IMG/VR virus record: IMGVR_UViG_640753023_000011 | Origin: a virus | Lineage: Duplodnaviria; Heunggongvirae; Uroviricota; Caudoviricetes | Length of the DNA stretch: 29,986 nt | Direction: 5' to 3' (one strand) | Shown here: piece after piece, positions 1 through 29,986 of the stretch | Position numbering within the stretch: position 1 is the first letter of the stretch | Layout: each line of letters opens with the position of its first letter | Notes under the pieces: model-generated | Told to the model about the DNA's origin: nothing | Seen by the model: the letters and a program-made list of their open reading frames with translations, nothing else | Database searches by the model: none | Made by a program: the position numbers and the translations under genes

Positions 1-535
1 TTACACCATACTGTTAACCTGGCCGGGTAATTCGCTAGCTGGAATACGAAAGGTATACCAGGCATAACGACAGCGTTTCCACAGGCTGGAGAAATGGAGA
101 TGATAAAGGCAATCTGCAATAATTTCGTTATCTGGATATAAAGACTCGGCAAAATGTGTCCAGCGCGCACTGAGTTTCATGTTAAACAGTTTTTCATCTT
201 CTTTGTTACCATACAGGCGCGACAAAGTAATCATTGCTTCGAGCGTACCTTTATTCGCTTCTTCTTGTACCTGTTGGAGGTGCAAATGAGCAAGTGAGAG
301 TTCTTTCACCTCAAAGATATTAAGTAAAAAAAGCCCCCATGCTTTTTCATGTCCAGCTTCATGAGCCAGAAATAAATTGTCAAGGAGATTTTTTTCATAA
401 ATAGCCCGTGTTTCTTTAGAAATTTCTTGTTTATTTAGTGCCTGGTAGCAGATAGCAATGCTAAAATAAATATTTTGTAGATCTTGTTGATGTTCGCTAT
501 AACCATAATTTTTACCAGTGGATAAGATACCGAGC
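1..535 (-). pseudogene. 3' continuation of the 435..2147 gene in another frame (helical, Sel1/TPR-like repeat-looking region)
   Basis: Manual minus-strand translation shows the frame of the 1..309 ORF stays open up to a stop at 535-537, overlapping the end of the 570-aa ORF, whose last ~35 aa look low-complexity and out of frame. Consistent with one ~700-aa gene split by a frameshift near 535-560, or a sequencing error. Confidence 0.35.
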
Positions 536-2147: not shown

Positions 2148-2835
2148 TCCACGGCAATTTTTTCCAGTTACTGGATGGATCTTTCAACCATGCAGTGACT
2201 TCCTTTAAATCACGGTTCGCAGTGGCGACGGGGGTATCGTATATCATTAACCATTTTTGTCGGGCGCGAACATAAGCACTGGCATAATCTTCCCATGAAG
2301 CGAAACAATCTTGTGCTCTTTGAGCATTCAGTAATAACACTATCCAGGCCTGGTTTTCATCGCACCAGCCTAAACCGGCGATGCAACGAGTTAAAAAAGC
2401 AGTGCGCATACAGTCAAACGCCAGCCCATCCAGAACCTGGCCTTGTGCTGCCAGTTGTTCGTAAAAATCATGTGGAGAATTACCAAGCCCTGTAGCCCAG
2501 CGCTGTAATATAACGCCAATTTGTTGACGGAAATCTTCGTTGCTTTGGTAAGTTTCTGTTCCTAGCTCTTGTTTAACCTGTAGTGCAAGTTGTTGACGCT
2601 TATCATCAGTCAACTTTAAATCTAACGTGAAGCCATTTACTGACAGTCCATTACGACGAGCAACTATATCACCAATTGCTAATGCCCACTTACGTCTCTT
2701 TGTTGCTCGTCTTTTGTCCTTGATTAGATCCTTTTCTTTTTCTTTAGCAATAAAAGCATCGATTTGTGGTTTGTTTTTTTTGTATCTATAGATAAAAATA
2801 AATATTGCGACCAGGAGAACAATGATAAGACTCAT
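2119..2835 (-). CDS. hypothetical membrane-anchored protein (single N-terminal TM helix then a basic/charged linker), 238 aa
   Basis: ORF track; N-terminus MSLIIVLLVAIFIFIYRY is hydrophobic, followed by a Lys/Arg-rich stretch; its start codon overlaps the stop of the upstream 404-aa gene by 1 nt. Confidence 0.55.
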   Translation of the reverse strand: MSLIIVLLVAIFIFIYRYKKNKPQIDAFIAKEKEKDLIKDKRRATKRRKWALAIGDIVARRNGLSVNGFTLDLKLTDDKRQQLALQVKQELGTETYQSNEDFRQQIGVILQRWATGLGNSPHDFYEQLAAQGQVLDGLAFDCMRTAFLTRCIAGLGWCDENQAWIVLLLNAQRAQDCFASWEDYASAYVRARQKWLMIYDTPVATANRDLKEVTAWLKDPSSNWKKLPWNEFKIFEPN

Positions 2836-4049
2836 TATTTTTCAACCTCTGACAGGGGTAAGTAATGAGATGTCTGTAATGTCAAACTCTCTATCTCAAA
2901 GGAAATGTTGCTGATATTTTGACCTGCAAATTGCGGATGCCACTCAGCGCCAGGGAATAACATTTCCGCAGAAGTAGCAACTATAGGGTCAATAGCATTA
3001 AGATAATGTAACTTATCAGGTGCGCTGTGTAACAGTAACCACTGCAACTCCACTGAAGGATTTGTAAAATGTTCTAATAAATGAAAGTTATTATGTAGTA
3101 CGCTTAGTAAAAAACTGGTTTCGTATACTTCCGTTACATATTTCCACCCCTGATATTCAGGTGTATTTTCATAAACAATACCCATACCTTCACAATCACT
3201 ATGTCGAACTGCTTGTGGTGATAATAGTTGCAAAAGAGACAAAACATCGTCCGCATATTTTTTAACTGGATGACGATTTTGCTTACCTTTTATTTGATCA
3301 ATTTCAAGTGAATCACCAACAACATTGAGAGCAATAGTAACATGAGGAATATTATTATTATCACGCAAACTGAATAACCGTAATTTATGTTGCTCAATTT
3401 GATTTGCATAATACTCACCATAACCACCGGTAAGATTTTTTCGATCATCAAACTGGCCTACGCAATGTTGCATATGCCATGATTCATAAGCCATTTCACG
3501 ACGAAGGTTCGAATGACTGGCATCAAACTCAACAATTTTTCCGTCTGGCACATCAAGTATTGACTTTACAGTATTTTGTTCACTCGGCTGCCACCCTTTC
3601 TCGCGTCGTTGAAGCATCTTTTCATGCTCTTCTTCACGCATTCTGAACGCAACGTAGCAGGTTATGCGCTGTAGTTTTGATTCCAGACGGGTACCACATT
3701 TCCTGGAAAGAAATTCCACCAACTCCCGTTCTTTGGTTAATATTTGTTGATGATCGGTTTCGATATAATAAAGTGTCGCAGTTGATACTGAGGCAGTATT
3801 AAACTTCGATACCAGCCATTCCGGGATTACATCATCATTTTTATTAAACAGTGAATATTCTGCAAGCGAGTTAATTTGTTGCACCATTGGAAAGTCACTA
3901 ATTAGCCATCGATAAAAATGGTTGAGTAACCATTTTTGGATGGTCTCATTATCCTGGCGAAACAGACTTCTTTGCAAAATTGCTGTTTTTACTTCCGGGG
4001 CATTAATTACATCCCTTGCATTATAATTCTGGTGAATATTTCCAGTCAT
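2835..4049 (-). CDS. hypothetical protein, 404 aa, first gene of the AT-rich three-gene operon
   Basis: ORF track; AT-rich; preceded by a ~450-bp AT-rich non-coding region (4050-4500) likely holding its promoter. No motif recognised with confidence. Confidence 0.55.
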   Translation of the reverse strand: MTGNIHQNYNARDVINAPEVKTAILQRSLFRQDNETIQKWLLNHFYRWLISDFPMVQQINSLAEYSLFNKNDDVIPEWLVSKFNTASVSTATLYYIETDHQQILTKERELVEFLSRKCGTRLESKLQRITCYVAFRMREEEHEKMLQRREKGWQPSEQNTVKSILDVPDGKIVEFDASHSNLRREMAYESWHMQHCVGQFDDRKNLTGGYGEYYANQIEQHKLRLFSLRDNNNIPHVTIALNVVGDSLEIDQIKGKQNRHPVKKYADDVLSLLQLLSPQAVRHSDCEGMGIVYENTPEYQGWKYVTEVYETSFLLSVLHNNFHLLEHFTNPSVELQWLLLHSAPDKLHYLNAIDPIVATSAEMLFPGAEWHPQFAGQNISNISFEIESLTLQTSHYLPLSEVEK

Positions 4050-6170: not shown

Positions 6171-6389
6171 TTACATCCACATAATTTGCTGCCCTGACGG
6201 CAACGGGGGCGGTCTTACGGCGTGGACTTCTCCCGGCTTCACGATGTATCGCTGTACCGACTCATAAGTGATGAATGTGGCGCTGCAATTCACGTTCTGA
6301 CACTGGTGATAACGCTCTTTTGTCGTGTCAGTGATATAGCGGCTTGTACGCGCATGTGCGGCATGCTGGCATAAAGGACAATGAAACAT
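6171..6389 (-). CDS. ogr: Ogr, zinc-finger late-gene transcriptional activator (72 aa from MFHCPLCQ...)
   Basis: ORF contains MFHCPLCQHAAHARTSRYITDTTKERYHQCQNVNCSATF, the Ogr Cys4 zinc-finger sequence; the track ORF (6171..6452) has a 21-codon N-terminal extension that is probably not translated. Confidence 0.85.
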   Translation of the reverse strand: MFHCPLCQHAAHARTSRYITDTTKERYHQCQNVNCSATFITYESVQRYIVKPGEVHAVRPPPLPSGQQIMWM

Positions 6390-11582: not shown

Positions 11583-12443
11583 TTAATTGCTGTTAACCGA
11601 GGTGACCAGATTTGCCAGGTATTTATCGGTAATACGCTGGCGCAGGGTCAGGTTTTCGAGAGGAGGCACCGGTGTATAGTCGTAGTCGATATACAGTTTT
11701 CCGGCCTTGAGGGTTTCCGCATCGTTGGATTCTTCGCTGAACCAGCATGAGCCATCCACGATATAGCCGTTTGTTTTCAGCTCACGGAATTTGGCATTGA
11801 TGCCGTCAACGATATCGCGAATCAGCGTTGCGGTGATGGGCTTGTCCACCGCCCACATGTGCGCCTCAGCCATCGTGTCGGCCAGCACCTGCGCGGTGCG
11901 GGTGTAGTTTTCAAAGAGAAACAGCGGGTCATCAGAGCAGGTACGGTTACCCCAAAAGCGGAAACCGTCGCGGCGAATCAGCGTAGTGACGCCTGACTCG
12001 TTAAGCAGGTCAGCATCGGTGCCGGACTCCTGCAAATCCCAGAATACAGAGGCGCTGATGCCGGTAACACCGTTTACCCCGACGTTGGACAGCGTTTTAT
12101 GCCAGCCCTGCTCCTGGTCGATTTTAGCGCGCAGACCCAGCGCACGGGCGGTGGCATACGCGGTGGCGGTGGTACTGGTGACCGTATCCCATGCGAGGAA
12201 ATCCGGCCAGATGACCATCAGCTCACGCTGGCTGAAATTCTGGCGGTAGGCTTTCACCTCGGAAATGGTTTTACAGCCCCATGCGCTGATATACCCGAAA
12301 GCGCGCAGCTTCTGACAGACGGATGCCAGTGCAACAGCCACCTCTTTGGTATCCAGTCCCGGCACACCGAGAATACGCGGTTTAACACCGGTTACCGACT
12401 CCGCCGCCAGCAGGTGCGTATTACCGTGAAGGAGATCGGTGAG
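11583..12443 (-). pseudogene. FI: tail sheath protein (gpFI-like), 5'-truncated at the IS boundary
   Basis: 288-aa ORF where ~390-400 aa is expected for a myovirus sheath; the ORF's first codons lie at or within the IS21-family left end. Confidence 0.75.
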
Positions 12444-12499
12444 TAACATCGATGGAGATCGGTTCGTGTCACTTTCACAGAACCGTTTTTAAATTACCT

Positions 12500-13249
12500 T
12501 CACTGATCTCCTTCGGTCAACGGAGATTGTATTTTCCGCATTGATTCTCCTTTAAGTTCGATCTTGATACTGCCATGAACCAGTCGATCTAGGATGGCAT
12601 CCGCATGTGTGGAGTCTCCGATCATTTTGTACCAGTTTTCCACCGGCAACTGGCTCACTACGATGATTGAGCCTCGTTGGTACATCAGATCCACTATTTC
12701 CAGCAGGTCGCTACGCTGTTCTGATGAGAGAGGTTCCAGCCCCCAGTCATCCAGAAGCAGCAGATCGCTATTATTCAGCCTGGTCAAAAGTTTGCTGTAT
12801 CTTCCATCAGCATGCCCCTGATAGCACTGTTCCATCAGCGCTTTAAGGCGATAATAGTAGACCTTGTATCCCTGTCGGCAGGCATTATGACCAAGTGCAC
12901 ATGCCAGGAACGTTTTACCGCTGCCGGTGGCCCCGGTCAGTAAAATATTTTGTTTCAGGGTTAACCAGTTTCCCTGACTGAGTGAACGGATGAGGGCCCT
13001 GTCCAGCCCTCTATTGTTACGATAATCCAGCTTTGATAACTCAGCATTAAGTCTGAACCGTGCATGTTTGATCAGACGCTCTGCCTTCCTGTTTTCACGG
13101 CAGGTTAGTTCTTCTGCTGTCAGTAATGACAGGCGTTCTTCGAAGCCCAGCTCCTGGTATGTGCCCGGCTGAGCAAGTTGCTTTTTAAGCGCATCACGGA
13201 AGCCGGTGAGTTTAAGTGCGGTCAGTTGTTCGTAAAGATGATTCATCAT
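12500..13249 (-). CDS. istB: IS21-family IstB transposition helper ATPase
   Basis: 249 aa with Walker A (GATGSGKT) and Walker B (LLLLDDWG) motifs; located downstream of istA. Confidence 0.85.
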   Translation of the reverse strand: MMNHLYEQLTALKLTGFRDALKKQLAQPGTYQELGFEERLSLLTAEELTCRENRKAERLIKHARFRLNAELSKLDYRNNRGLDRALIRSLSQGNWLTLKQNILLTGATGSGKTFLACALGHNACRQGYKVYYYRLKALMEQCYQGHADGRYSKLLTRLNNSDLLLLDDWGLEPLSSEQRSDLLEIVDLMYQRGSIIVVSQLPVENWYKMIGDSTHADAILDRLVHGSIKIELKGESMRKIQSPLTEGDQ

Positions 13250-13260
13250 TGGATCCCGTA

Positions 13261-14803
13261 TCAGTGGTAATACTCACTGCCGCGTACGTTTTCGTGTTCC
13301 ATCGTGGATAACAGATCTGGTTTTGGATCCTGAACAGGTTGTTTATCCAGACCTTTTTCCAGGATCGATTTAATACCTGACAGACGCCATACCTTTGTTT
13401 TCAGAGCTCTTGCACATGCTGCATTAAGTCTGGCTTTACTGTATTTTTTATGAAGGTTCAGGAGTCCAAGGCAGAAGCGATAGCTTTGTTCCGGATGTGG
13501 ACGAGAGTTCAGTATATGAAGCACATAACTATGAGTTTCACTGCCTATGTGCCCCGCCCATTCCAGAAGACGCTCTGGCGTCCAGGTGGCATGCTGTCGA
13601 TGAGCTTCAGGCATGTGCTCGTTGCGGGTACTGTAGCCATAAGTACGCTTGCGCGGGTGCACAGCAACCTCCTGCCCCTGATTGAAGAGTCTTACCAGTT
13701 CTCCGGAGATCCATGCTTCCAGTTGCTGGCCTAACAGCGAACATGGAACCGAGTAGTAATGTTTGTCGATTTCCACGTGGTAATCGGCATGAACTCTGAC
13801 TTTCTTCACCAGGGTGTAACTGTAACTGGCTTCAGGAAGAGGCTTCAGTGCGGGTTTATCAAGCTGGATGAAGAGTTCTGCACGTGAATAACCCAACTTC
13901 TGCATTATTTTGTTATTCAGTCTTTCCAGCAACTCCCGAATGCGCTGATTAAGCGATGCAAGGCTGTAGAAGATCTCATGCCTGATTCGGGCCATGATCC
14001 AGCGTTCAACAACCTGAACGCCAACTTCAGCTTTGGCTTTATCTTTTCGGTTTACGTGGCCGCGCAGGCAAAACTGCGACATTATAATGCTCAAGCATCT
14101 GCTGGTAGGTAGGGTTAACGTCAGGATCATACTTACATGCCCTGGATGTGGCGCTTTTCAGATTGTCCGGAACAACAAGTTCAGGAACGCCACCCAACCA
14201 CTGGAAGCAGCGAACATGACTCATCACCCAGTCTTCAAGCTGCTGAGACCAGGTGGCCTCTGCCCATGTGTAACTTGATGCCCCGAGAACAGCTACGATG
14301 ACCTGAGCAGTTCTTATTTCTCCGGTCTCAGGGTCGGTAACGCCAACGGTAGGTCCACAGTAATCAACGAAAAGTTTTTCGCCAGCTTTATGTACCTGAC
14401 GCATTGATGGTGAAGTGGTTTTGAGCCATTCACGGTACATCCGGCAGTAATGGTTATAGCTGTAAAAACCGCCTGGATTACGCTCACAGTATTCTTCCCA
14501 GAGTAGCTGCAGCGTCACGCATTTATTACGCAGTTCCCGGTGTACTGTAGCCCAGTCAGGCAGAGAGTGCTTCTTCATCTTAACCTGGGTCTGAAGGAAC
14601 GCATGTTTTAGTTTTGTATCATCCCATCCTGTAGGTAAGGGCCACTGCTTTATGCCAAGTTGAGCCGCCCGATTAGCATATCTGGATACAACGGAAGGGG
14701 AGATTGCAAGACTACGACCAATTTGTCGATGGCTGAGTCCAACACCGTATTTAAGCCTAAGAATTTCTTTAAGTTTTCTCATAGAAATTGGAACTGTTGG
14801 CAT
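13261..14803 (-). pseudogene. istA: IS21-family IstA transposase, split by a frameshift into 254-aa and 289-aa ORFs
   Basis: N-terminal ORF (14039..14803) has an HTH and ends ...RPRKPKR*; the C-terminal ORF (13261..14130) continues in another frame with ...[11 protein letters not shown]...; the shift maps to a T4 (mRNA A4) run at 14044-14047. Confidence 0.7.
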
Positions 14804-14917
14804 AGGTATCCTTTACCGGAATGGCAAAAGATACAGATCAACACACCTGTGAAGTTCCAATAACATTGATGGAGATCACTGAATAACAAAATGAGTCAAA
14901 AGTGATCTCCATCGATG

Positions 14918-15829
14918 TTATTCAGCGATCTTAAAACTACCCATATCAGATATCCGATTAGCCCGCGTACCTACATGTATTGCAGCGCCTTCTCCCAAAC
15001 CAAGGTATGCGAGAAGACCGGCAACATCCTTTCCACTCAAATGAGTCAGCGTCTCATCCAGTGGCTGCTTACCTGACAGCGCATTGTTAATGGTGGTGCT
15101 GAATTTCGGGTCATTGTTAATGGCTGCGGCAATTTCTTTCAGTGTGTCCAGCGTGGCTGGCGCACCGTTAATCAGAGCGGTAATAGCGGCCTGAACAAAC
15201 GCAGTGGTCGCAATCCGCGTGGTGTTATTTCCTGCGGCAGGCGTCGGCGCTTTTGGTTCTCCGGTAAATGTCGGATTATGTTTCTGCGCATACTGGGTAT
15301 GAGGATCCTGTGCGGCAATGTGGTTTCTCATCTGGTCATCCACATACAGCCTTAATTCCAGGACTTCATCATCCACGTATTTACGGGTCGCCAGTACCAC
15401 CGACGGGTCGATTTTCAGCGTGATAGCTTCGGTATTCGTGACAACCAGAATCATGCGGATAGTCTGGGTACGACCGCTGCCTTCCTGCAACTGCGGTTTG
15501 TACGTTTCCGGGCAGTTCGCCACCGCAATGAGTACGCCTTCATCATCATAAAGCCCAATCTCACGGATCCAGAATCCGCCCTCGTTCTCAGGGATGATTT
15601 GCTCCGCAATAATCTGGCTCTGGTTGTTCGGGTCAACACTCAGAAGATTCAGCGGCGCGATGCGTTTCTGGTTAATCAGTTTTGTCTGTGCCGGGTCTGG
15701 TGTCGGCAAGACACCATTCGCATCACCAACGGCCATTTGCGTCAGATTCAGCTTACTGCCGAGCATCGTCGCGTTAGCCAGCCGTGCTGCGCCCTGATTA
15801 GTCAGAATGGCGTAGTATTTCACTGTCAT
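14918..15829 (-). pseudogene. H: tail fibre protein (gpH-like), 3'-truncated at the IS boundary
   Basis: 303-aa ORF with an N-terminus resembling P2 H (MAVGD..G.LP.P...QT.L; GGFW.RE.GLYDD.G.LIAVAN; YKP.L.EGSGR); its stop is supplied by the IS right end; full-length H-type fibres are much longer. Confidence 0.75.
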
Positions 15830-16437
15830 GCGTTTACTCTCAGGTTATCAATTAAATGAATGGCCGAGGCCGGGAAATAATCCCCTCCGACAATAATGGC
15901 CTCTGGGGTGTAGGGATAAACCGTCAGGGCGTCACCGTGATAGCATCCCGCACCGGCAAAAATGTTGCCGGTTGTACTTAAACTGATAGCCAGTCCCGTC
16001 AGATGGCGACTTGCCGGTTTGGCATCAGCAACGAGGCGCTCCAGCTCCTGATACATTTCCTCGGTAATACCCTGCTCAAGCACGCCAACAACGATACGGA
16101 ACGTCCCCGGCTCCTCGTTGAGTTGCCACCACTCCCTCACCTCAATCAGATAGCCGAGCGGCTCCACCACACGGCGAATCGCACCAATAGTGCCCTTATG
16201 GCAGTGAATGAAATACGCATCGCGGATAACAGCGCGTTTGGTCGCTTCCGGCCATTTATCATCCCACCTGTCGACCGAAAATGACCACGCCAGCCACGGC
16301 AGCAGATTTGCCGGGCAGGTGTCCGGGTTCCACAGCTCACGAATACTGACCGGTGTTTTTTCAATTTCCGCACAGGCTTTTGCGGCGGCGACTTCAAGCG
16401 GCGATGAGCCAGTTGGCAGCAGTCGCGAATCACTCAT
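15826..16437 (-). CDS. I: baseplate assembly protein (gpI-like)
   Basis: 203 aa; position between J and H as in P2; start overlaps the J' stop. Confidence 0.7.
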   Translation of the reverse strand: MSDSRLLPTGSSPLEVAAAKACAEIEKTPVSIRELWNPDTCPANLLPWLAWSFSVDRWDDKWPEATKRAVIRDAYFIHCHKGTIGAIRRVVEPLGYLIEVREWWQLNEEPGTFRIVVGVLEQGITEEMYQELERLVADAKPASRHLTGLAISLSTTGNIFAGAGCYHGDALTVYPYTPEAIIVGGDYFPASAIHLIDNLRVNA

Positions 16438-16918
16438 CCGAGCCTCCGGTCACGACGCTGTATTCAGTACAGAAAGACGCCTGCGTACTGTTGAGCACAA
16501 TGTCAGCCAGCGGTGCAGTCAGTTCGACACGCTGCACGCCTTCCACATGCAAAGCGGCATAAATGGCAGACAGACGGATGTCGCGCCCAAGCCGGTGCTG
16601 TGCCGTGATGTACGCTTCCAGTTTTTTCACGGCAGCAGCGCGGATGGGTTCGCTTTCGGGACCAGGGTAAAGGTAAAGCGTGGCGTTTATCTGGTATTCA
16701 ACAATGGCGGCAGACTGCACGGTCACGCGGTCGGCCACCGGTCTGACGTCCTCGCCATTCAGGGCGTTACGCACCACGGCCAGCAGGTCTTCGGATGCGA
16801 CACCGTTATTTTCACGTGACAGCACGGAGATGGTGACGCAGGCCGGAGACGGACTGGTGACAGAGATATCCGCGACACGCCCGTCGGCACTGCGGCCATG
16901 ATACTGATAGGCTCCCAC
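16430..16918 (-). pseudogene. J: baseplate protein (gpJ-like), 5'-truncated; N-terminus of the called ORF derives from the repeat junction
   Basis: 162-aa ORF where ~300 aa is expected for P2 J; upstream sequence is the 38-bp tandem repeat array, not J coding sequence. Confidence 0.6.
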
Positions 16919-17097
16919 CGACCCGGCGCAGGGTCAGGTTTTCGAGAGGCTCCCACCGACCTGGCGCAGGGTCAGGTTTTCGAGAGGCTCCCACCGACCT
17001 GGCGCAGGGTCAGGTTTTCGAGAGGCTCCCACCGACCTGGCGCAAGGTCAGGTTTTCGAGAGGCTCCCAACGACCCGGCGCAGGGTCAGGTTTTCGC
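16910..17097. repeat. five tandem copies of a 38-bp unit (ggctcccaccgacc[c/t]ggcgca[g/a]ggtcaggttttcgaga)
   Basis: Direct reading: copies start at 16910, 16948, 16986, 17024 and 17062 with a strict 38-bp period and 1-2 substitutions per copy; the last copy decays after 17096. Confidence 0.9.
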
Positions 17098-17599
17098 TCA
17101 CGGGCGTTGCCACTGAAATCAGGTTTTCAGGGCTTAATTTGAAGCGGTTCAGGGGGTTGTGTTTTGCCGTGCGGCAGAATTCCAGGTATTCCGTGCCGAG
17201 GCTTGCCGGGTCATCGGTGACGGCCAGACCCACCAGATAACATTTGCCGGTGTTGGCAAAGTTCGGCTGAATTTCCATTGAGGTGTAGACCTTCTGCGCG
17301 GCCTTGTTCATCGCGATAAGGTCATCGGTCGGGGTGATTTTCGCAAACAGCGCCCATTTGCCTTTCAGCGCCGAATCATCGTCAATCTTTTCGGCCTTAA
17401 GTTCGGCCACATCGCCATAACGTTTAAAAATACCATCAGGCAGGATGCCGCGCAGATGTTCCAGGTTAATGCGGCAACCGTAGACACGCGGGTCAAAGGT
17501 TTCAGCCATTTCCTGAATATCCTGCGCACTGATGACACGCCCGTCACAGGTGTCACCCTCAACGCCGATACGAAAGAATTTTGAGACTTTTTTTGCCAT
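17048..17599 (-). pseudogene. O: capsid scaffolding protein (gpO-like), 3'-truncated and fused to repeat-derived codons
   Basis: Begins MAKKVSKFFRIGVEGDTCDGRV..., which I recognise as the P2 gpO N-terminus; ~183 aa retained where ~284 aa is expected; the C-terminal codons and stop lie inside the 38-bp repeat array. Confidence 0.7.
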
Positions 17600-17772: not shown

Positions 17773-19545
17773 ATGACCATCACCACAGACACCACTCTTT
17801 TACACGACCCGCTTCGTCAGGCGGCGCTGCTGTACTGGCAGGGATTTTCCGTGCCGCAGATTGCCGCCATGTTGCAGATGAAACGCCCGACAGTGCAGAG
17901 CTGGAAACAGCGCGACGGCTGGGACAACGTTGCCCCCATCAGCCGTGTCGAAATGAGCCTGGAAGCGCGGCTGACCCAGCTCATCATCAAACCGCAGAAA
18001 ACCGGCGGTGACTTCAAGGAAATTGACCTGCTGGGACGCCAGATTGAACGACTGGCACGGGTAAATCGTTACAGCCAGACCGGCAACGAGGCAGACCTTA
18101 ATCCGAACGTCGCTAACCGCAACAAAGGCGGGCGGCGCAAACCGAAAAAAAATTTTTTCAGTGACGAGGCCATCGAAAAGCTGGAGCAGATTTTCTTTGA
18201 GCAGTCTTTCGACTATCAGTTGCACTGGTATCGCGCCGGGCTTGAGCACCGCATCCGCGATATCCTGAAATCCCGCCAGATTGGCGCGACGTTTTATTTT
18301 TCCCGCGAGGCGCTGCTGCGCGCCCTGAAAACCGGCCATAACCAGATTTTTCTGTCGGCCAGTAAAACGCAGGCGTATGTGTTCCGCGAATACATCATCG
18401 CCTTTGCCCGGCTGGTTGACGTTGACCTGACCGGTGACCCGATTGTCCTGGGCAATAACGGCGCAAAACTGATTTTTCTCGGCACCAACTCCAACACCGC
18501 ACAGAGCCATAACGGCGACCTGTACGTCGACGAGATTTTCTGGATCCCGAATTTTCAGGTACTGCGTAAGGTGGCATCAGGTATGGCCTCACAGAGTCAC
18601 CTGCGCTCGACCTATTTCTCCACCCCGTCCACACTGGCGCACGACGCCTACCCGTTCTGGTCGGGTGAACTGTTCAACCGGGGACGCGCCAGCGCCGCCG
18701 AACGCGTGGAAATCGACGTCAGTCATAACGCCCTTGCCGGAGGTCTTCTCTGTGCGGACGGCCAGTGGCGGCAGATTGTCACCATTGAGGACGCCCTGAA
18801 AGGTGGCTGCACACTGTTCGACATTGAGCAGCTCAAACGTGAAAACAGCGCCGACGATTTTAAAAACCTGTTCATGTGTGAATTTGTTGACGACAAGGCG
18901 TCGGTGTTCCCGTTCGAGGAGCTGCAACGCTGCATGGTCGACACGCTGGAAGAATGGGAAGACTATGCGCCGTTTGCCGCCAATCCGTTCGGCTCACGCC
19001 CGGTATGGATTGGTTACGATCCGTCACACCGTGGCGACAGCGCCGGATGCGTGGTACTGGCACCGCCGGTGGTGGCCGGTGGCAAATTCAGGATCCTTGA
19101 GCGTCACCAGTGGAAAGGCATGGACTTTGCCACTCAGGCTGAATCCATCCGCAAACTCACCGAAAAATACAACGTCGAATACATCGGTATTGATGCCACC
19201 GGCCTCGGTGTCGGCGTGTTCCAGCTCGTGCGCTCGTTCTATCCCGCCGCGCGCGACATCCGCTACACGCCGGAAATGAAAACCGCAATGGTGCTCAAGG
19301 CAAAAGACGTTATTCGCCGTGGCTGTCTGGAATATGACGTCAGCGCCACCGACATCACCAGCTCGTTTATGGCTATCCGCAAGACCATGACCAGCAGCGG
19401 ACGCAGCGCCACCTATGAGGCCAGCCGCAGCGAGGAAGCCAGCCACGCCGACCTCGCCTGGGCGACCATGCATGCCCTGTTAAATGAGCCACTCACCGCG
19501 GGTATCAGCACCCCGCTGACATCCACCATTCTGGAGTTTTACTGA
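17773..19545 (+). CDS. P: terminase large subunit (gpP-like)
   Basis: ~590 aa; start taken at MTITTDTT..., preceded by GAGG 7 nt upstream (the track's upstream ATG at 17743 lacks an SD); transcribed away from O toward cos as in P2. Confidence 0.85.
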   Translation: MTITTDTTLLHDPLRQAALLYWQGFSVPQIAAMLQMKRPTVQSWKQRDGWDNVAPISRVEMSLEARLTQLIIKPQKTGGDFKEIDLLGRQIERLARVNRYSQTGNEADLNPNVANRNKGGRRKPKKNFFSDEAIEKLEQIFFEQSFDYQLHWYRAGLEHRIRDILKSRQIGATFYFSREALLRALKTGHNQIFLSASKTQAYVFREYIIAFARLVDVDLTGDPIVLGNNGAKLIFLGTNSNTAQSHNGDLYVDEIFWIPNFQVLRKVASGMASQSHLRSTYFSTPSTLAHDAYPFWSGELFNRGRASAAERVEIDVSHNALAGGLLCADGQWRQIVTIEDALKGGCTLFDIEQLKRENSADDFKNLFMCEFVDDKASVFPFEELQRCMVDTLEEWEDYAPFAANPFGSRPVWIGYDPSHRGDSAGCVVLAPPVVAGGKFRILERHQWKGMDFATQAESIRKLTEKYNVEYIGIDATGLGVGVFQLVRSFYPAARDIRYTPEMKTAMVLKAKDVIRRGCLEYDVSATDITSSFMAIRKTMTSSGRSATYEASRSEEASHADLAWATMHALLNEPLTAGISTPLTSTILEFY

Positions 19546-20579
19546 TGAGCAAGAAAAAAGGGAAAACACCGCGACCAGCGGCAAAAACAATGACCGCCAG
19601 CGCCCCGAAAATGGAGGCATTCACCTTTGGCGAGCCGGTGCCGGTACTCGACCGCCGTGACATTCTGGATTACGTCGAATGCATCAGTAACGGCAGATGG
19701 TATGAGCCACCGGTCAGCTTTACCGGTCTGGCAAAAAGCCTGCGTGCTGCCGTGCATCACAGCTCACCGATTTACGTCAAACGTAATATTCTGGCCTCAA
19801 CGTTTATCCCGCATCCGTGGCTTTCCCAGCAGGATTTCAGCCGCTTTGTGCTGGATTTTCTGGTGTTCGGTAATGCGTTTCTGGAAAAGCGTTACAGCAC
19901 CACCGGTAAGGTCATCAGACTGGAAACCTCACCGGCCAAATATACCCGTCGTGGCGTGGAGGAGGATGTTTACTGGTGGGTGCCGTCCTTCAACGAGCCG
20001 ACACCTTTCACGCCCGGCTCCGTGTTTCACCTGCTGGAGCCGGATATTAATCAGGAGCTGTATGGCCTGCCGGAATATCTCAGCGCCCTTAACTCTGCCT
20101 GGCTGAATGAGTCGGCCACGCTGTTCCGCCGCAAGTATTACGAAAACGGCGCACATGCCGGATACATCATGTACGTTACCGATGCCGTGCAGGATCGCAA
20201 CGATATCGAAATGCTTCGCGAAAACATGGTGAAGTCGAAAGGCCGCAACAACTTTAAAAACCTGTTTCTCTATGCCCCGCAGGGGAAAGCCGACGGCATT
20301 AAAATTATCCCGCTCAGTGAAGTGGCGACGAAGGACGATTTTTTTAATATCAAAAAAGCCAGCGCCGCTGACCTGCTGGACGCACACCGCATCCCCTTTC
20401 AGTTGATGGGTGGCAAGCCGGAGAACGTCGGGTCACTGGGCGATATTGAGAAAGTGGCAAAGGTCTTTGTCCGCAATGAGCTAATCCCGTTACAGGACAG
20501 GATTCGGGAAATAAACGGCTGGCTCGGTCAGGAGGTCATCCGCTTTAAAAACTACTCACTGGACACTGACAACGGCTGA
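19545..20579 (+). CDS. Q: portal protein (gpQ-like)
   Basis: 344 aa, same length as P2 Q; start overlaps the P stop (ATGA); adjacent to cos. Confidence 0.85.
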   Translation: MSKKKGKTPRPAAKTMTASAPKMEAFTFGEPVPVLDRRDILDYVECISNGRWYEPPVSFTGLAKSLRAAVHHSSPIYVKRNILASTFIPHPWLSQQDFSRFVLDFLVFGNAFLEKRYSTTGKVIRLETSPAKYTRRGVEEDVYWWVPSFNEPTPFTPGSVFHLLEPDINQELYGLPEYLSALNSAWLNESATLFRRKYYENGAHAGYIMYVTDAVQDRNDIEMLRENMVKSKGRNNFKNLFLYAPQGKADGIKIIPLSEVATKDDFFNIKKASAADLLDAHRIPFQLMGGKPENVGSLGDIEKVAKVFVRNELIPLQDRIREINGWLGQEVIRFKNYSLDTDNG

Positions 20580-20583
20580 ACAT

Positions 20584-20606
20584 CGCCGCCTGCGGGCGGC
20601 TTTTTT
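20584..20606 (+). terminator. rho-independent terminator after Q
   Basis: gccgcc-tgcg-ggcggc hairpin followed by T6. Confidence 0.6.
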
Positions 20607-20748
20607 ACAACCCGCCATCACGCCCTCACACGCTCACCACCGCACAAAACACCCCGCAGACACACCAACGCCCCGGCGCACAATCCAAACGCCGTCACGA
20701 CGCGCTGAGACGCTGAAAAAATAAAATCAGCACCACCGCCAGCGCGCA

Positions 20749-20767
20749 GTGCTTTCCCCGCCTCGCC
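20749..20767. other. cos site (19-nt cohesive end sequence of P2-type phages)
   Basis: gtgctttccccgcctcgcc is the reverse complement of the P2 cohesive end GGCGAGGCGGGGAAAGCAC as I recall it. Confidence 0.7.
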
Positions 20768-20817
20768 CGCCCGCTTCATGGGTCGGTTTTAATGCAGATG
20801 CATGTGAACACTCGAGA

Positions 20818-20847
20818 TTGACTGGATAAGACCTAAGGTGCATTAAT
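20818..20847 (+). promoter_or_regulatory. candidate sigma70 promoter for the cargo operon (TTGACT-N18-ATTAAT)
   Basis: By-eye match to -35/-10 hexamers upstream of 20906; not validated. Confidence 0.25.
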
Positions 20848-20905
20848 TTTTTGTTTTTTTACATGCAGTTTGATGCAAGAACATGCCCTCTAAAGTCTTG
20901 GTTTA

Positions 20906-21955
20906 ATGTGCTACACTTTTATACAAACCTATGATAAAAGCGATAAAAAATCTTCCATTTTGGCGAACATTATGACGGATATTGAAACAGCTCGATGGAA
21001 CACAGAAAGTGCCGCTTTGTTGGCACTATCAGAAATACATGGCGTTAGTTATTGGACTCTATATAAAGTTGCTCAAAAGGGAATCAGATTTAGAGACATT
21101 GTTACCAGCCAAACATTAGCCAACTTTGAGTATCTACTTGGAGTAAAACTTCATCGCCAACCTTATTATTTGAATGAAGGCAATTGGTCTGTTTTTCGGG
21201 ACAGCATGATTTCTACGGCTAAAATATTACTCACACATTATCATAATAGTGGTTACAAAATCATCCACCATGGTTCTCCGAGCTATCCAGACAAGTTGAA
21301 TGATCTGTCTGAGCCGCCTTTCTGGTTGTTTGCTCAAGGCAATGTATCCTTGCTAGATAAAAAGTGTGTTGGAGTTGTCGGCACCAGAAACCCAACCGCA
21401 CTTGGAATTTATTTAACTCAAGCAGTAATCTCGCAATTTATAGATTCGGATTATTCAACTGTAAGCGGTTTAGCATATGGTATAGATCAATCTGCACATG
21501 AAGCATCCCTGCTATTTAAAATACCGACAATTGCTGTGTTAGGTACTGGCGTAAACTCAAATTATCCCAAAAATAGTGGCGAGATGAGAGGCCATATTGT
21601 AAATAATGGCGGACTGATTCTTACTGAGTATTTACCAAACCAAAAACCATCACAGGAAAATTTTGTTCGTAGAAATAGAATTCAAGCAGCTTTAAGTGAT
21701 GTATTGATCCCAGTTGAATGGGGCCTAAAAAGTGGGACATCTCATACTGTGAGATATGCTGCTCAATTAAAAAGAGCGATACTTTGTCCTTTACTTAGGG
21801 GAACTACACCTCAAGAAGAGATTAAACATGCCTTGTCAGAGTACTCAGCTACGATAATGAATATTCCACTATCCGATTTTAAAGACGTGCAAAGCTTAAT
21901 TAAATCAGCATCCGGTGTAAAAACACAGCAACTTTCTCTTCTGGGAGATGAATAA
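20906..21955 (+). CDS. DprA/Smf-like (SLOG-type Rossmann) protein; candidate ShosA-like antitoxin or sensor
   Basis: Motifs CVGVVGTRNP, SGLAYGIDQSAHE, TIAVLGTGVNSNYPKN, ENFVRRNRIQAALS and SGTSHT follow the conserved spacing of the DprA Rossmann domain; the N-terminal region has an HhH-like segment; AT-rich; true start may be M23 (20972). Confidence 0.7.
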   Translation: MCYTFIQTYDKSDKKSSILANIMTDIETARWNTESAALLALSEIHGVSYWTLYKVAQKGIRFRDIVTSQTLANFEYLLGVKLHRQPYYLNEGNWSVFRDSMISTAKILLTHYHNSGYKIIHHGSPSYPDKLNDLSEPPFWLFAQGNVSLLDKKCVGVVGTRNPTALGIYLTQAVISQFIDSDYSTVSGLAYGIDQSAHEASLLFKIPTIAVLGTGVNSNYPKNSGEMRGHIVNNGGLILTEYLPNQKPSQENFVRRNRIQAALSDVLIPVEWGLKSGTSHTVRYAAQLKRAILCPLLRGTTPQEEIKHALSEYSATIMNIPLSDFKDVQSLIKSASGVKTQQLSLLGDE

Positions 21956-23231
21956 TATGTATTTAAAGGCAGTTATATTTTCAATCGCAGATGTTGTATT
22001 ACCATTAACATCTAACACTCAACCTCAGGAACTAAAATCTAGAATCGACTCTGAATTACGTAAGTTGTTTGCGTTTTTGTCATCAAAAGGGATTAAAGTT
22101 ATCTTCTTGACAAATAAAAATAGAAACGTGAGAACACATGACGGGATCGTAACACTAGACGAATACCTAAAAAGGAAATTCCCAGAATCAATTCACTTTT
22201 GCCGTGAACTCGACAACAACATACCAGCAAAACAAACAGGGAAGGCCATAGATTTCATCATGGCTGCGTTAGAATTAAAACGAAACGAAATGATCTATGT
22301 AGGGCGTTCTCAGGAAGACTTACAAGCAGCTACCAACGGGAATACCCTATTTATTAATGCGACCTGGTATGAACCGGTTACTGAGTACGGTTTTCAATTT
22401 TCAGAACCCAAAGAAATCGCTAGATTTATTGATGTCTTTTGCTTAAGAGAGCAGTTGTGGGGATGGCAAGGGCATTTTAATGAAGATGTTCACTACTACG
22501 CCTTAGCACCATTTAGCACATATGTCCCTGAATTTACAATGTATTCAGCCAATGCAAGAGACCTCGCAAAGCTATCGGTTGGAAGCCCCGATTTTTGGAT
22601 AAGATATCTTGGTGCTAGCATTTATTTCTCTGGCTTAAGTGAAGGAGCAAGTTTTATAACCACCTACGTTGGACATAACGCTGAAGATCCTTATAAACTA
22701 GCAAACATTATGGAGCATGACCTAAAAGGTTTAGCAGTTTCATTCAAAGGAAAGTATCTAAAAGATCTATTCTTACGACATACAACAGCTATTAAATCAC
22801 AGCAAGCTCGGATAGCTAAGCAAGAAGTAAACATCACATCTCAAATAAACACAGTTAATTTAAATCCTGCCCCTATTAAAAACCTCATCACCGGCGAAAG
22901 ATATACCAACCCTCCTAAATTGAAAGGTAAGAAAATATTAGTTATTGATGATTTTTGCACTGAAGGAAATGCTCATGAAACAGCCAGAATGTATCTAAAA
23001 GCTGCAGGCGCAAATGTAATAAATATATCGTGGTTAAAAACCATCAATCGTGACGTTTCTATCTGTGAACCAACTCGCAAGATACGGCCATGGGAGGCCA
23101 ATACACTTGATGTTGATGACATTAACTATGTCGGTACGATTGGTTATGCTGAAAATGTAACTCACGGTAGTGCACCTCAAGTGTTATCAGAAAAAATTCA
23201 ACAATATGATAACTGGGACTGGCCACAATAA
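21948..23231 (+). CDS. two-domain protein: N-terminal HAD-like fold with atypical motif I, C-terminal type I phosphoribosyltransferase (PRTase)-like domain; candidate ShosT-like toxin/effector
   Basis: C-terminal KKILVIDDFCTEGNAHETA fits the PRPP-binding motif of type I PRTases; N-terminal AVIFSIADVVL...VIFLTNKN...K...IYVGRSQEDL resembles HAD motifs I-IV with both motif-I Asp positions substituted; overlaps the upstream gene by 8 nt (alternative start at 21957). Confidence 0.65.
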   Translation: MNNMYLKAVIFSIADVVLPLTSNTQPQELKSRIDSELRKLFAFLSSKGIKVIFLTNKNRNVRTHDGIVTLDEYLKRKFPESIHFCRELDNNIPAKQTGKAIDFIMAALELKRNEMIYVGRSQEDLQAATNGNTLFINATWYEPVTEYGFQFSEPKEIARFIDVFCLREQLWGWQGHFNEDVHYYALAPFSTYVPEFTMYSANARDLAKLSVGSPDFWIRYLGASIYFSGLSEGASFITTYVGHNAEDPYKLANIMEHDLKGLAVSFKGKYLKDLFLRHTTAIKSQQARIAKQEVNITSQINTVNLNPAPIKNLITGERYTNPPKLKGKKILVIDDFCTEGNAHETARMYLKAAGANVINISWLKTINRDVSICEPTRKIRPWEANTLDVDDINYVGTIGYAENVTHGSAPQVLSEKIQQYDNWDWPQ

Positions 23232-23248
23232 ATCAATCCCATAATTTA

Positions 23249-23278
23249 AAGTGCCCCCTAATAATGGGAGGCACTTTA
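23249..23278. terminator. hairpin between the convergent cargo operon and gene A (possible bidirectional terminator)
   Basis: Inverted repeat aaagtgcc...ggcacttt with A/T-rich flanks on both sides. Confidence 0.4.
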
Positions 23279-23406
23279 AATATTAAGAAGATAATGTCAT
23301 TAAGCGAAATTTAACTATAATTTAAAACATTACAATTATTATTTTTTAAAGTTTACTATTACCCAATCCATCAATAAGACCTGTATTTATTCGTAATTTA
23401 ATAGCC

Positions 23407-25704
23407 TTACCACTCATCAATCACTGGATATTTGAATTTTTTATTATCATAAATCACCATCGCCCCACGCGCCAGCGCCTCAAGCTCCCATCGCTGCGGT
23501 CTGATACCGTTCTGAGCAAGGTCAACGCGGATACGGGTGATTTGCAATCTTTCAGACCGGGTCAGTCTGGCCGATGGTGCAATTTCATGTGGTTTTAACG
23601 GGCTTCCGTTTCTTTGCTGACGGTTTGGTCTTCTCAGGCCGTGTTTTAATGCGCTTCTGAGCGCCCTCACAACCTCCGGGTCATTCCATTCGATAACACC
23701 GTCATCAACCAGATTAAGCACTGCTGCGGCGTGCTCAGAAGGTGTGGGAGCCGGTAACGAAGTATCACCGCCGGTGAGCTTTCCACAGTTATTGACAGGA
23801 CTCCGAGGCGCGGCGATGCCGCTTTTTAAAGTCAAAGGCTCAACGACCGGCACTTTCGGAACAATGCGCCAGTCCGTCGTTCTGGTGATATGAATATGAC
23901 GTGCGCCGAGATGCGGCGCGTAAATGCCGACCACTCTCTCGACCTCCTCCTCGTACTCGTTAACGTCATCCGACGGGCTACGGGCGACCCTGACAGTCTG
24001 ACAATCGCGCGGGACATTTGCCCCGCCCTGCGCGCTGATATACAACGCAAAATCACCACTGTCTGCAGCGGCGCGTGCAGCCTCGACGCGCTCGTCAAAC
24101 TCATCAGCAATGCTGACGCCGCGAGGCAATTTGCGTAGTTCACGGTAAGCCCCCATTGTCGGCAGACCAACCGTTTTAAATTGCGGAATGCGCCACGTTG
24201 ACGCCCATGCGGTAACAGCCGCAGCTGTGTCTTTCAGCGGCCTACCGGTATCATTATCGAGCTGACCATCCAGTGCATAGCCGTCGATGTTTTTTGAAAT
24301 GTATTTCGCGATATATCCCGCAGCACCGCCCCGGTTAAGGTGTTTTGCCTGAAAACGGTTTCGCGCGGCTCCTCTTTCGTCGCCATCCTCTTTGAGCGCA
24401 TAGCGACGCATGATTTCAATAATCTGGTTACGCTGGCGTGGATTACAAAAAAGCATCATATGCCAGTGCGGCGTTCCGTCGTGGTGTGGTTCAACAACAC
24501 GCAAACCGTAGGCCTGTAAATCATTATCCTTGAATGCCGTGCGCATCAGGCTCCAGATACGGCAGAGATAACGCTGCGCATCCTTTGGATTAAATGCCTC
24601 ATCATTCCAGCCGTGATTTAGCTGGACGGTTTTACTTTCGCCTTTTCTGACCTGACGTGTCGGGTGATACTTTGACGGCGCGGTCAGCGTGATAAACATC
24701 CCCACATCACCCTCTGCGGCAGCGTAACGCTCAATACCGGCGATGGTGTTCATCAGCTCCATCCGGCGAATTTCTGGATTAGAAATACTGCCCATCACCT
24801 TACTGATAAGGTCGATGCGCTCGCCGGTTTCCCTGTTTTCAAGGTCACACGATTTAAGAAATTCCAGATTTGCCTGGCGGCGCGCACGCACATCACGAAT
24901 GGCATGTTTACTTGCATAAGGAGAACGGTCTTTATTGACCTCCCCGACAGCAATCAGTAACGCCTCATGCCAGCGCATACGCTGGCCTTTAAGCTGATGA
25001 GTCCACCATTCATCGTTAAACAGACGGGCAATGGCAGAATATGCCTGCCTCGTGGTCATCTGCCCTTTACGGTATTTTTTCCAGTAGAGCGGAGAAATAT
25101 TGAAAGCACGTGCAGCGCCAGCAACATGACCATAGAGGTGAGCCTGCGCCTCATCCGTAAACAGCGATTCTTTTTCGCCATGCGCATCCACCCAGGCATC
25201 GCAGAGTTCCTCATACATCATGAAAAGCTGCGATGAGATACGGGCGGCAAACTTTTTCAGCTCCTTATCATTCATCCCCGGCAGACGCGCATAATGGTCA
25301 CGCTCTGCCAGAAACAGCAACGACGCGTCGGTGTTCATTTCATGGCGCTGATTCACGCGCTCAATGCGCGGCCATAAACGACGCTGAAAAGTGGATGTGA
25401 GGAAATAAAACCCGTGCACCGGGCTTTTATTGCGCCGGATGTAGTCATAGCGTGAAGTAAACAGCGAGCGCAAAAAGTAAGGCAGGCGGTTAATCGTGGA
25501 TAAAACACCTTGCACCTGACGCATCTCGTCACGTGTAAGGGGTCTTTCGCGCCCGACAGCCTCGCGTGGCGCGTTCCATGCATAAGCACCGGTAAACGCC
25601 TTACCGGTGCCTGCGGCAAATGCTGACGGAGGGACAAAACGCCCGGAGGCTTTAACGTCCATATGAGCCAAAAGCCTCTGAACAACGCCTGCTGAGTTGC
25701 TCAA
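23407..25704 (-). CDS. A: replication initiation protein (gpA-like rolling-circle endonuclease)
   Basis: 765 aa, close to the length of P2 A; last gene of the early operon; contains a HWHMM motif. Confidence 0.85.
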   Translation of the reverse strand: MSNSAGVVQRLLAHMDVKASGRFVPPSAFAAGTGKAFTGAYAWNAPREAVGRERPLTRDEMRQVQGVLSTINRLPYFLRSLFTSRYDYIRRNKSPVHGFYFLTSTFQRRLWPRIERVNQRHEMNTDASLLFLAERDHYARLPGMNDKELKKFAARISSQLFMMYEELCDAWVDAHGEKESLFTDEAQAHLYGHVAGAARAFNISPLYWKKYRKGQMTTRQAYSAIARLFNDEWWTHQLKGQRMRWHEALLIAVGEVNKDRSPYASKHAIRDVRARRQANLEFLKSCDLENRETGERIDLISKVMGSISNPEIRRMELMNTIAGIERYAAAEGDVGMFITLTAPSKYHPTRQVRKGESKTVQLNHGWNDEAFNPKDAQRYLCRIWSLMRTAFKDNDLQAYGLRVVEPHHDGTPHWHMMLFCNPRQRNQIIEIMRRYALKEDGDERGAARNRFQAKHLNRGGAAGYIAKYISKNIDGYALDGQLDNDTGRPLKDTAAAVTAWASTWRIPQFKTVGLPTMGAYRELRKLPRGVSIADEFDERVEAARAAADSGDFALYISAQGGANVPRDCQTVRVARSPSDDVNEYEEEVERVVGIYAPHLGARHIHITRTTDWRIVPKVPVVEPLTLKSGIAAPRSPVNNCGKLTGGDTSLPAPTPSEHAAAVLNLVDDGVIEWNDPEVVRALRSALKHGLRRPNRQQRNGSPLKPHEIAPSARLTRSERLQITRIRVDLAQNGIRPQRWELEALARGAMVIYDNKKFKYPVIDEW

Positions 25705-28220: not shown

Positions 28221-29234
28221 ATGGCAATCAAAAAACTCGATGATGGTCGATATGAAGTGGACATCCGCCCTACTGGACGTAACGGAAAACGCATCCGTAG
28301 GAAGTTTGATAAGAAAAGCGAAGCTGTCGCTTTCGAAAAATACACGTTGTACAACCACCACAATAAAGAATGGCTATCAAAACCAACAGACAAACGACGT
28401 CTGTCGGAACTGACACAGATCTGGTGGGATTTAAAGGGTAAACACGAAGAGCATGGGAAATCTAATCTTGGAAAAATTGAAATCTTCACAAAAATAACGA
28501 ATGACCCATGCGCATTTCAAATCACGAAATCCCTTATCAGCCAGTACTGCGCCACCCGAAGAAGCCAGGGTATTAAACCTTCGAGTATCAATCGTGATTT
28601 AACATGTATTAGCGGCATGTTTACAGCCCTGATTGAAGCGGAGTTATTCTTTGGTGAGCACCCTATCAGAGGGACAAAGAGGCTTAAGGAGGAAAAACCA
28701 GAAACAGGCTATCTCACACAGGAAGAAATTGCCTTACTGCTTGCAGCACTTGACGGCGACAATAAAAAGATTGCGATTCTTTGCCTGAGTACAGGAGCAC
28801 GTTGGGGAGAAGCAGCTCGTTTGAAAGCAGAAAATATCATCCATAACCGCGTCACGTTTGTTAAAACGAAAACAAACAAACCACGCACCGTCCCGATTTC
28901 AGAGGCTGTTGCCAAAATGATCGCGGATAACAAACGAGGTTTTTTATTCCCTGATGCTGATTACCCTCGCTTCAGACGAACAATGAAAGCAATAAAACCG
29001 GATTTGCCAATGGGGCAAGCCACACATGCACTAAGGCACAGCTTTGCCACTCATTTCATGATTAATGGAGGAAGTATTATCACGCTACAACGGATACTAG
29101 GTCACACGCGGATTGAGCAAACTATGGTTTACGCTCATTTTGCGCCAGAGTACCTTCAGGACGCCATTTCTCTTAATCCGCTAAGAGGTGGTACTGAGGC
29201 CGAGAGTGTCCACACAGTGTCCACAGTAGAGTAA
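28221..29234 (+). CDS. int: tyrosine integrase (P2 Int-like)
   Basis: 337 aa, same length as P2 Int; C-terminal catalytic signature HALRHSFATH...LGH...MVYAHF; adjacent to the att core. Confidence 0.9.
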   Translation: MAIKKLDDGRYEVDIRPTGRNGKRIRRKFDKKSEAVAFEKYTLYNHHNKEWLSKPTDKRRLSELTQIWWDLKGKHEEHGKSNLGKIEIFTKITNDPCAFQITKSLISQYCATRRSQGIKPSSINRDLTCISGMFTALIEAELFFGEHPIRGTKRLKEEKPETGYLTQEEIALLLAALDGDNKKIAILCLSTGARWGEAARLKAENIIHNRVTFVKTKTNKPRTVPISEAVAKMIADNKRGFLFPDADYPRFRRTMKAIKPDLPMGQATHALRHSFATHFMINGGSIITLQRILGHTRIEQTMVYAHFAPEYLQDAISLNPLRGGTEAESVHTVSTVE

Positions 29235-29313
29235 CGTTTAAGGGCTTTCAGTGGTAATTTATGCCGCTCAAACCCGCATTGTACCGTTGAAAGCCCCTAC
29301 TGGTGACACCCTA

Positions 29314-29340
29314 AATCTCCCTTACACGGGCTTATTTTTT
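29314..29340. other. prophage attachment core, int-proximal copy (attL)
   Basis: aatctcccttacacgggcttatttttt; direct repeat of 6043-6069 (25/27 identical). Confidence 0.75.
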
Positions 29341-29668
29341 ATGCATAAGCCCTATCCCTGGTCACCGTCTTCCATTGACCACATCGATAGAATCCTCCTT
29401 CATAGCACGATGCTTTTCACTTATCGACATCGTGCTCGCACAGGTTCCGGTTACGCACAGCCAGAACGCGCATGTTTGACGCTTACCAAAAAATGAACCT
29501 AAAGCATTGGAACATTTTTGACATCATTTTCTGATGGCTGCATAAAATAAAAATTCTGCTTTAGTTTCATCTATCTGTTTGTCATTATTACTCACATTCA
29601 ATAATGGTGTTGAAGAATATCCCATCACAGATAAAATAAATATGTGCATGGTAGTCTTGAATCTATTC

Positions 29669-29986
29669 TCACTCTCCACATTTGAATGTCAGACGAGCGA
29701 CGCCATGTAATCCTGCACCTTCTGTCTTCAGGTCAACTATCTGCATTTTTTTGCCCTGAGTAACACAGAAATGAACTGCATCATTTTTTACTATATTTTC
29801 TGCACCAGATATTCTACCCCTGGCTAAAGAAGCTTCGGCTTCGGTGTAGTATTGGTTATCGAGTTTACGCTGAATATTACTTTTATATGCAAGACCAAAT
29901 TTACCGATACTTGTCTCATCATTATGTACAGCACACCCAGACATAAGAAAAACACTAATTAATGATATAGCAGCTATCTTTTTCAT
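29669..29986 (-). CDS. small lipoprotein (host flank; possibly the yegR equivalent)
   Basis: 105 aa with signal peptide and lipobox (LMSGC); AT-rich; lies outside the att repeat. Confidence 0.6.
   Translation of the reverse strand: MKKIAAISLISVFLMSGCAVHNDETSIGKFGLAYKSNIQRKLDNQYYTEAEASLARGRISGAENIVKNDAVHFCVTQGKKMQIVDLKTEGAGLHGVARLTFKCGE

Follow-up and report, generated by a model that had tools for sequence, protein, structure and literature searches.

The two genes lying between the cos site and gene A in the window (the whole stretch of DNA analysed, 29,986 nucleotides) are, with very little doubt, those of ShosTA, a type IV toxin-antitoxin system acting against phages. The carrier is a P2-like prophage of E. 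coli APEC O1 that has become defective, and the pair sits as cargo in its cos-A hotspot. On direct comparison the window matches positions 2253187-2283172 of NC_008563.1 (E. coli APEC O1) at 29986/29986 bases, and megablast places the shosAT region in E. coli APEC O1 at 100% identity. The locus is the ShosTA copy already cloned, phage-tested and crystallised, and is thus already known: DNA and proteins are 100% identical to those of the published APEC O1 system (ABJ01487.1/ABJ01488.1; PDB 8ZVA-8ZVD, 9VZO, 9W2P and 9W2Q; plasmid pFR105), and the genome position is the same. The coordinates of the features discussed below are collected in Table 1.

Table 1. Features of the shosAT locus and of the surrounding prophage (positions in the window)
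Feature	Position	Strand	Remarks
Truncated tail sheath gene	11583-12413		RefSeq
IS21-like ISEc12 (istA frameshifted, istB)	12500-14803		between truncated tail sheath and tail fibre genes
Truncated tail fibre gene	14933-15829		RefSeq
Truncated baseplate J gene	16430-16927		abuts short gpO gene 17048-17599
Portal gene Q	19545-20579		RefSeq annotation
P2-type cos site, 19-nt cohesive end	20749-20767	.	left hotspot boundary; identical to cosL/cosR of P2 NC_001895
AT-rich cargo leader, GC about 0.35	20800-20971	+	presumed native shosAT promoter region
shosA, DprA-like antitoxin, 327 aa	20972-21955	+	SAM + Rossmann/DprA domain; longest ORF from 20906
shosT, toxin, 424 aa	21957-23231	+	HAD-like hydrolase/PPase 1-164, PRTase 165-424; longest ORF from 21948 (427 aa)
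Symmetric hairpin, likely terminator	23244-23281	.	13 nt after shosT stop; arms 23244-23258 / 23267-23281
P2 gene A, replication endonuclease	23407-25662	-	right hotspot boundary; RefSeq; position as in P2 relative to old/tin/cos

Identity of the locus

All the features of ShosTA that can be read in a sequence are present, namely a PRTase toxin with an intact PRPP loop, a DprA-like antitoxin and their organisation in one operon. shosA and shosT are adjacent and co-oriented, no terminator separates them, and a hairpin is found only 3' of shosT. The functional features, i.e. toxicity, neutralisation without direct binding and protection against phages, have been published for identical sequences (Rousset 2022, PMC9122126; Pu 2025, PMC11961720; Yang 2026, PMC12961424).

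A preliminary description of the window had proposed a ShosTA-like pair, made up of a DprA-like and a PRTase protein and acting in defence or as a toxin-antitoxin system. Full-length matches to the PADLOC ShosA and ShosT models, identical PDB entries and the published defence data bear this out. The description had left open whether the HAD-like domain and the gene order match described members; both do, the antitoxin gene coming first in ShosTA, and both are described features because the locus itself is the described system. It had also stated that identity to a characterised system would remove novelty, not function, and this is the case: the type example of ShosTA has been rediscovered at its published genomic address.

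The result can be put to use in two ways. As a positive control, it indicates that a reading based on the sequence alone recognised correctly both the DprA plus HAD-PRTase pair and the P2 hotspot. It also marks an annotation gap in RefSeq/NCBIfam for a system characterised structurally and functionally. The pair at 20972-23231 is labelled 'DNA-processing protein DprA' and 'hypothetical protein' in RefSeq, and neither a ShosA nor a ShosT model was found in NCBIfam.

Start codons and gene junction

The two plus strand ORFs are found as described, the longest forms spanning 20906-21955 (349 aa) and 21948-23231 (427 aa); inside either of them, the opposite strand is free of ORFs of 50 aa or longer. 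The only discrepancy with the published system resides in these lengths, since published ShosA and ShosT are 327 and 424 aa long. RefSeq starts shosA at 20972 (WP_001389235.1, 20972-21955) and shosT at 21957 (WP_001389236.1). M23 of the long ORF is also the first residue both of the PADLOC ShosA model and of the two PDB ShosA constructs. Similarly, the ShosT residues N53, K54, R56, K92, D331 and D332, as well as Y196, H240, K280, Q296, G337 and N338, numbered as in both structural papers, agree with the window protein only if the 424-aa form is numbered. A Shine-Dalgarno sequence (GGGAG, 21943-21947) lies 9 nt before the ATG at 21957, and directly abuts the ATG at 21948. The starts at 20972 and 21957 are thus the better-supported reading.

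The 8-nt overlap (21948-21955) from which translational coupling had been proposed holds true for the longest ORFs, and is replaced by a 1-nt gap at the annotated and published starts, where the stop codon of shosA (TAA, 21953-21955) is followed by one base and by the ATG at 21957. The latter arrangement is compatible with coupled translation.

ShosA and related DprA-like proteins

ShosA matches the PADLOC model PDLC02997 over profile positions 1-327/327 (764.6 bits), and is 100% identical from M23 to PDB entries 9VZO and 8ZVA in a PDB sequence search. The DprA motifs initially recognised in this ORF were recovered by a Pfam profile search, the check suggested at the time (PF02481, E = 9.8e-60). 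The protein, made up of a SAM and a DprA domain, binds ssDNA, pulls down recombination proteins, and neutralises ShosT without binding the toxin (Pu et al. 2025, PMC11961720); neutralisation works through DNA binding and the recombination partners RecA, RdgC, RecJ, RarA, XerD and RecN. ShosA is dimeric, and an ssDNA-sensitive interaction with RecA is required for neutralisation (Yang et al. 2026, PMC12961424).

ShosA shares the Rossmann domain and the binding of ssDNA and RecA with the canonical DprA/Smf proteins of transformation. Assignment to canonical DprA was rejected, the scores against TIGR00732 (171 vs. 191.15 bits) and PRK10736 (128.3 vs. 495) being below the NCBIfam equivalog cut-offs. 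The RefSeq name and the strong match to PF02481 would fit a metabolic cargo, in which a phage DprA serves DNA uptake or recombination and its partner is a nucleotide-salvage PRTase/phosphatase. This reading can be practically dismissed: besides the failure to reach the equivalog cut-offs, the PADLOC ShosA score is far above that of any DprA model, ShosT is toxic and bound none of the purines tested, and the published toxicity and defence assays refute it.

Two further families were considered and rejected. PsyrTA/RqlHI has a DprA-like antitoxin in common with ShosTA, but the PsyrA score is 83.6 bits only, that of the ShosA model being about 9-fold higher; no match to PsyrT was found, and the neighbouring gene encodes a HAD-PRTase, not a RecQ-like helicase. 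Retrons with a PRTase effector share the PRTase fold, but ShosT is a monomeric, non-canonical protein with a fused HAD-like domain; the cargo contains neither a reverse transcriptase nor a third ORF, and no msr/msd was found. No Rfam family was matched at E <= 1 in the 20500-23500 interval, which therefore carries no retron ncRNA or riboswitch.

ShosT and its HAD-like domain

ShosT matches the PADLOC model PDLC03012 over profile positions 1-427/427 (979.5 bits), and is 100% identical to PDB entries 8ZVB/8ZVC/8ZVD and 9W2P/9W2Q in a PDB sequence search. The PRTase and HAD folds predicted for this protein remained below the Pfam gathering scores (22.0 vs. 26.3 bits for the PRTase family PF00156, 21.7 vs. 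26.4 bits for HAD), but crystal structures of a protein with the same sequence establish both folds. The catalytic residues published for ShosT, D331/D332 and R56, are present in the window protein (424-aa numbering).

ShosT is toxic and is rescued by ShosA; it binds PRPP, and its toxicity depends on the active site of the PRTase and on this binding, being abolished by the D331A/D332A change (Pu et al. 2025, PMC11961720). When expressed, ShosT disturbs purine metabolism and brings about filamentation and genome duplications; none of the purines tested was bound by the protein (Pu et al. 2025, PMC11961720). ShosT has been described as a monomeric, non-canonical PRTase, PRPP binding and structures being confirmed (Yang et al. 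2026, PMC12961424). The HAD-like N-terminal domain has a Mg2+-independent pyrophosphatase activity and modestly enhances toxicity, on which the R56A change in the same PPase domain has a marginal effect only (Pu et al. 2025, PMC11961720).

The motifs of the HAD-like domain (ShosT residues 1-164, window 21957-22450) were also inspected. Strand beta1, read by eye, ends in KAVIFSIADVV, with S-I-A-D where HAD enzymes have DxDxT. Motif IV reads GRSQED, to be compared with GDSEID in the HAD phosphatase 2HI0 and with canonical GDSxxD. No HAD protein in the PDB aligned across motif I of ShosT; the only match, to 2HI0, is weak (E = 0.23) and covers motifs II-IV, and the statement on motif I rests for this reason on reading the sequence. 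As judged from these motifs, the catalytic aspartates typical of HAD enzymes, the Asp nucleophile included, appear to be missing from the domain. Such degeneration fits the odd published properties of the domain, both the Mg2+-independent pyrophosphatase activity and the marginal effect of R56A. On this account the domain may be no conventional pyrophosphatase but a pseudo-enzyme that binds phosphate or PPi in a regulatory role, and the PRTase may in addition phosphoribosylate a non-purine acceptor, the product being the real toxin; we hold this reading as a whole to be rather unlikely.

Composition, promoter and terminator

The AT-richness of the locus pointed out previously is evident, GC content being 0.381 at 20972-23231 vs. 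0.558 in genes P and Q and 0.531 in gene A. It is as low as 0.257 in the 175 nt spacer 3' of shosT (23232-23406). On account of this composition the locus could be silenced by H-NS in the chromosome.

A consensus scan detected no promoter-like site above threshold in the leader upstream of shosA (20800-20971), and 7 sites in the scanned region as a whole, vs. 8.5 expected by chance. The best match (10/12; ATGTCA-16-TATAAT, 23294-23321, plus strand) resides 3' of shosT, in the spacer with 26% GC, and reads into gene A from its 3' end, in antisense orientation. It is probably meaningless, as the number of sites is no higher than chance. The native promoter was used to express ShosTA by Pu et al. 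2025 (PMC11961720). The pFR105 insert, which starts at window position 20559, takes in the whole leader.

The terminator-like hairpin reported between shosT and gene A is substantiated both by the inverted repeat and by folding statistics. The 15-nt arms are 93% complementary and flank an 8-nt loop; the MFE is -21.8 kcal/mol (z = -4.8), and 0/200 shuffled sequences folded as well. A simple terminator scan did not flag the hairpin, because no clean T-run follows it. Gene A converges from the minus strand, and the hairpin is likely the terminator separating it from shosAT.

The P2 cos-A hotspot and the distribution of the cassette

Similarity to the right end of P2 runs to about position 20800 and then breaks, and the cargo, lying between cos and A, extends from about 20800 to 23406. 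The attribution of the locus to the slot hosting old/tin in P2, made from the start, is sustained by the identical 19-nt cos site, the homology break and the annotation of P2. The arrangement is that of a P2-like cos-proximal hotspot, with cargo between Q/cos and A and core similarity breaking at the cargo. shosAT and old/tin have in common the cos-A slot, transcription away from cos towards A and an anti-phage role in lysogenic conversion, but the proteins are unrelated. It was Rousset et al. 2022 (PMC9122126) who defined the region between Q/cos and A of P2-like phages as a hotspot of defence genes.

Among 5,426 complete E. coli genomes, the query is matched at least in part in 2,153, mostly over the stretch close to cos, and the full cassette was found in only 30. 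At 99.7% identity the cassette is present also in the genomes of the P2-like phages P24C9 and 10W, where it is likewise located next to A.

Anti-phage defence and its trigger

The toxin-antitoxin pair was first described by Kimelman et al. 2012, and named ShosTA by Millman et al. 2022 (preprint version). A 'DprA + phosphoribosyltransferase' cassette, cloned from E. coli APEC O1 in plasmid pFR105 (Table S2), conferred protection from T7 and lambda (Rousset et al. 2022, PMC9122126); the insert start printed for pFR105 is identical to window positions 20559-20647. shosA (ABJ01487.1) and shosT (ABJ01488.1) of APEC O1 were subsequently synthesised, and ShosTA expressed from the native promoter reduced T7 plating about 10^6-fold (Pu et al. 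2025, PMC11961720).

According to the same study, T7 Gp0.7 is a trigger, acting via shut-off of host transcription and decay of unstable ShosA; a transient block of translation or transcription, by chloramphenicol or rifampicin, is enough for activation, and the level of ShosA drops on infection (Pu et al. 2025, PMC11961720). Sensing of ssDNA has been proposed as a second trigger, and the two may coexist (Yang et al. 2026, PMC12961424). Decay of the labile antitoxin after host shut-off is favoured here as the main trigger, because the two inhibitors activate ShosTA by themselves and ShosA falls on infection; sensing of ssDNA through RecA is perhaps a second input. The sequence of events would be as follows. 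Once the phage shuts off host transcription, as T7 does by means of Gp0.7, the resupply of intrinsically unstable ShosA would stop, and pre-existing ShosT would then kill or arrest the infected cell, resulting in abortive infection. An earlier collapse of the culture at high MOI was not observed, however, which is atypical of abortive infection (Pu et al. 2025, PMC11961720).

T7 escape mutants reported earlier map to SSB (gp2.5), gene 0.7 and the primase-helicase, and the Gp0.7 model leaves the SSB and primase-helicase mutations unexplained. These mutations speak for competitive sensing, in which ShosA and RecA together monitor ssDNA, and phage replication intermediates titrate ShosA off RecA and unleash ShosT. 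The requirement for a direct, ssDNA-sensitive ShosA-RecA interaction in neutralisation (Yang et al. 2026, PMC12961424) speaks in the same sense. On the other hand, co-expression of T7 SSB with ShosTA is not toxic while that of Gp0.7 is (Pu et al. 2025, PMC11961720), and inhibitors of translation or transcription suffice for activation. Competitive sensing has therefore a real, though lesser, chance of being the way in which the system is triggered.

The defective prophage and neighbouring DNA

Judging from the RefSeq gene content, the prophage (window 6171-29234) is defective, especially at 11583-17599. The truncated J gene lies directly against a short gpO gene, from which it follows that the genes for the capsid, the small terminase, lysis and several baseplate proteins have been lost. 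The region removed at ISEc12 presumably is that of the second variable locus (Z/fun) of P2. In view of these losses, the defence cassette survives in a cryptic prophage.

The persistence of the pair in a prophage devoid of capsid, lysis and several tail genes would be in line with shosAT being primarily an addiction or stabilisation module, which prevents loss of the prophage, or of what remains of it, from the chromosome and provides defence as a side effect; the pair is moreover a bona fide toxin-antitoxin system with a labile antitoxin. Yet the defence phenotypes obtained from the native promoter are strong and specific, the slot is a dedicated hotspot for defence cargo, and the same cassette resides in P24C9 and 10W. 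A primary role in addiction is hence quite improbable.

At the edges of the prophage, ogrK is next to trhP (yegQ) at 6171-6389, and the integrase gene next to yegR at 28221-29986. The site is, we assume, the one occupied in the chromosome of E. coli K-12 by the ogrK-yegZ remnant of P2.

A search for a second defence system gave no PADLOC match for six other proteins of the window (the PcfJ-domain and DUF1266 proteins and hypothetical proteins of the P2 early region), the first two being intact proteins encoded in the block at positions 1-4049. This AT-rich block (GC 0.35-0.45), located on the minus strand beyond the prophage, upstream of trhP, encodes in addition a frameshifted DUF4034 protein, and has the look of an islet acquired separately by horizontal transfer.
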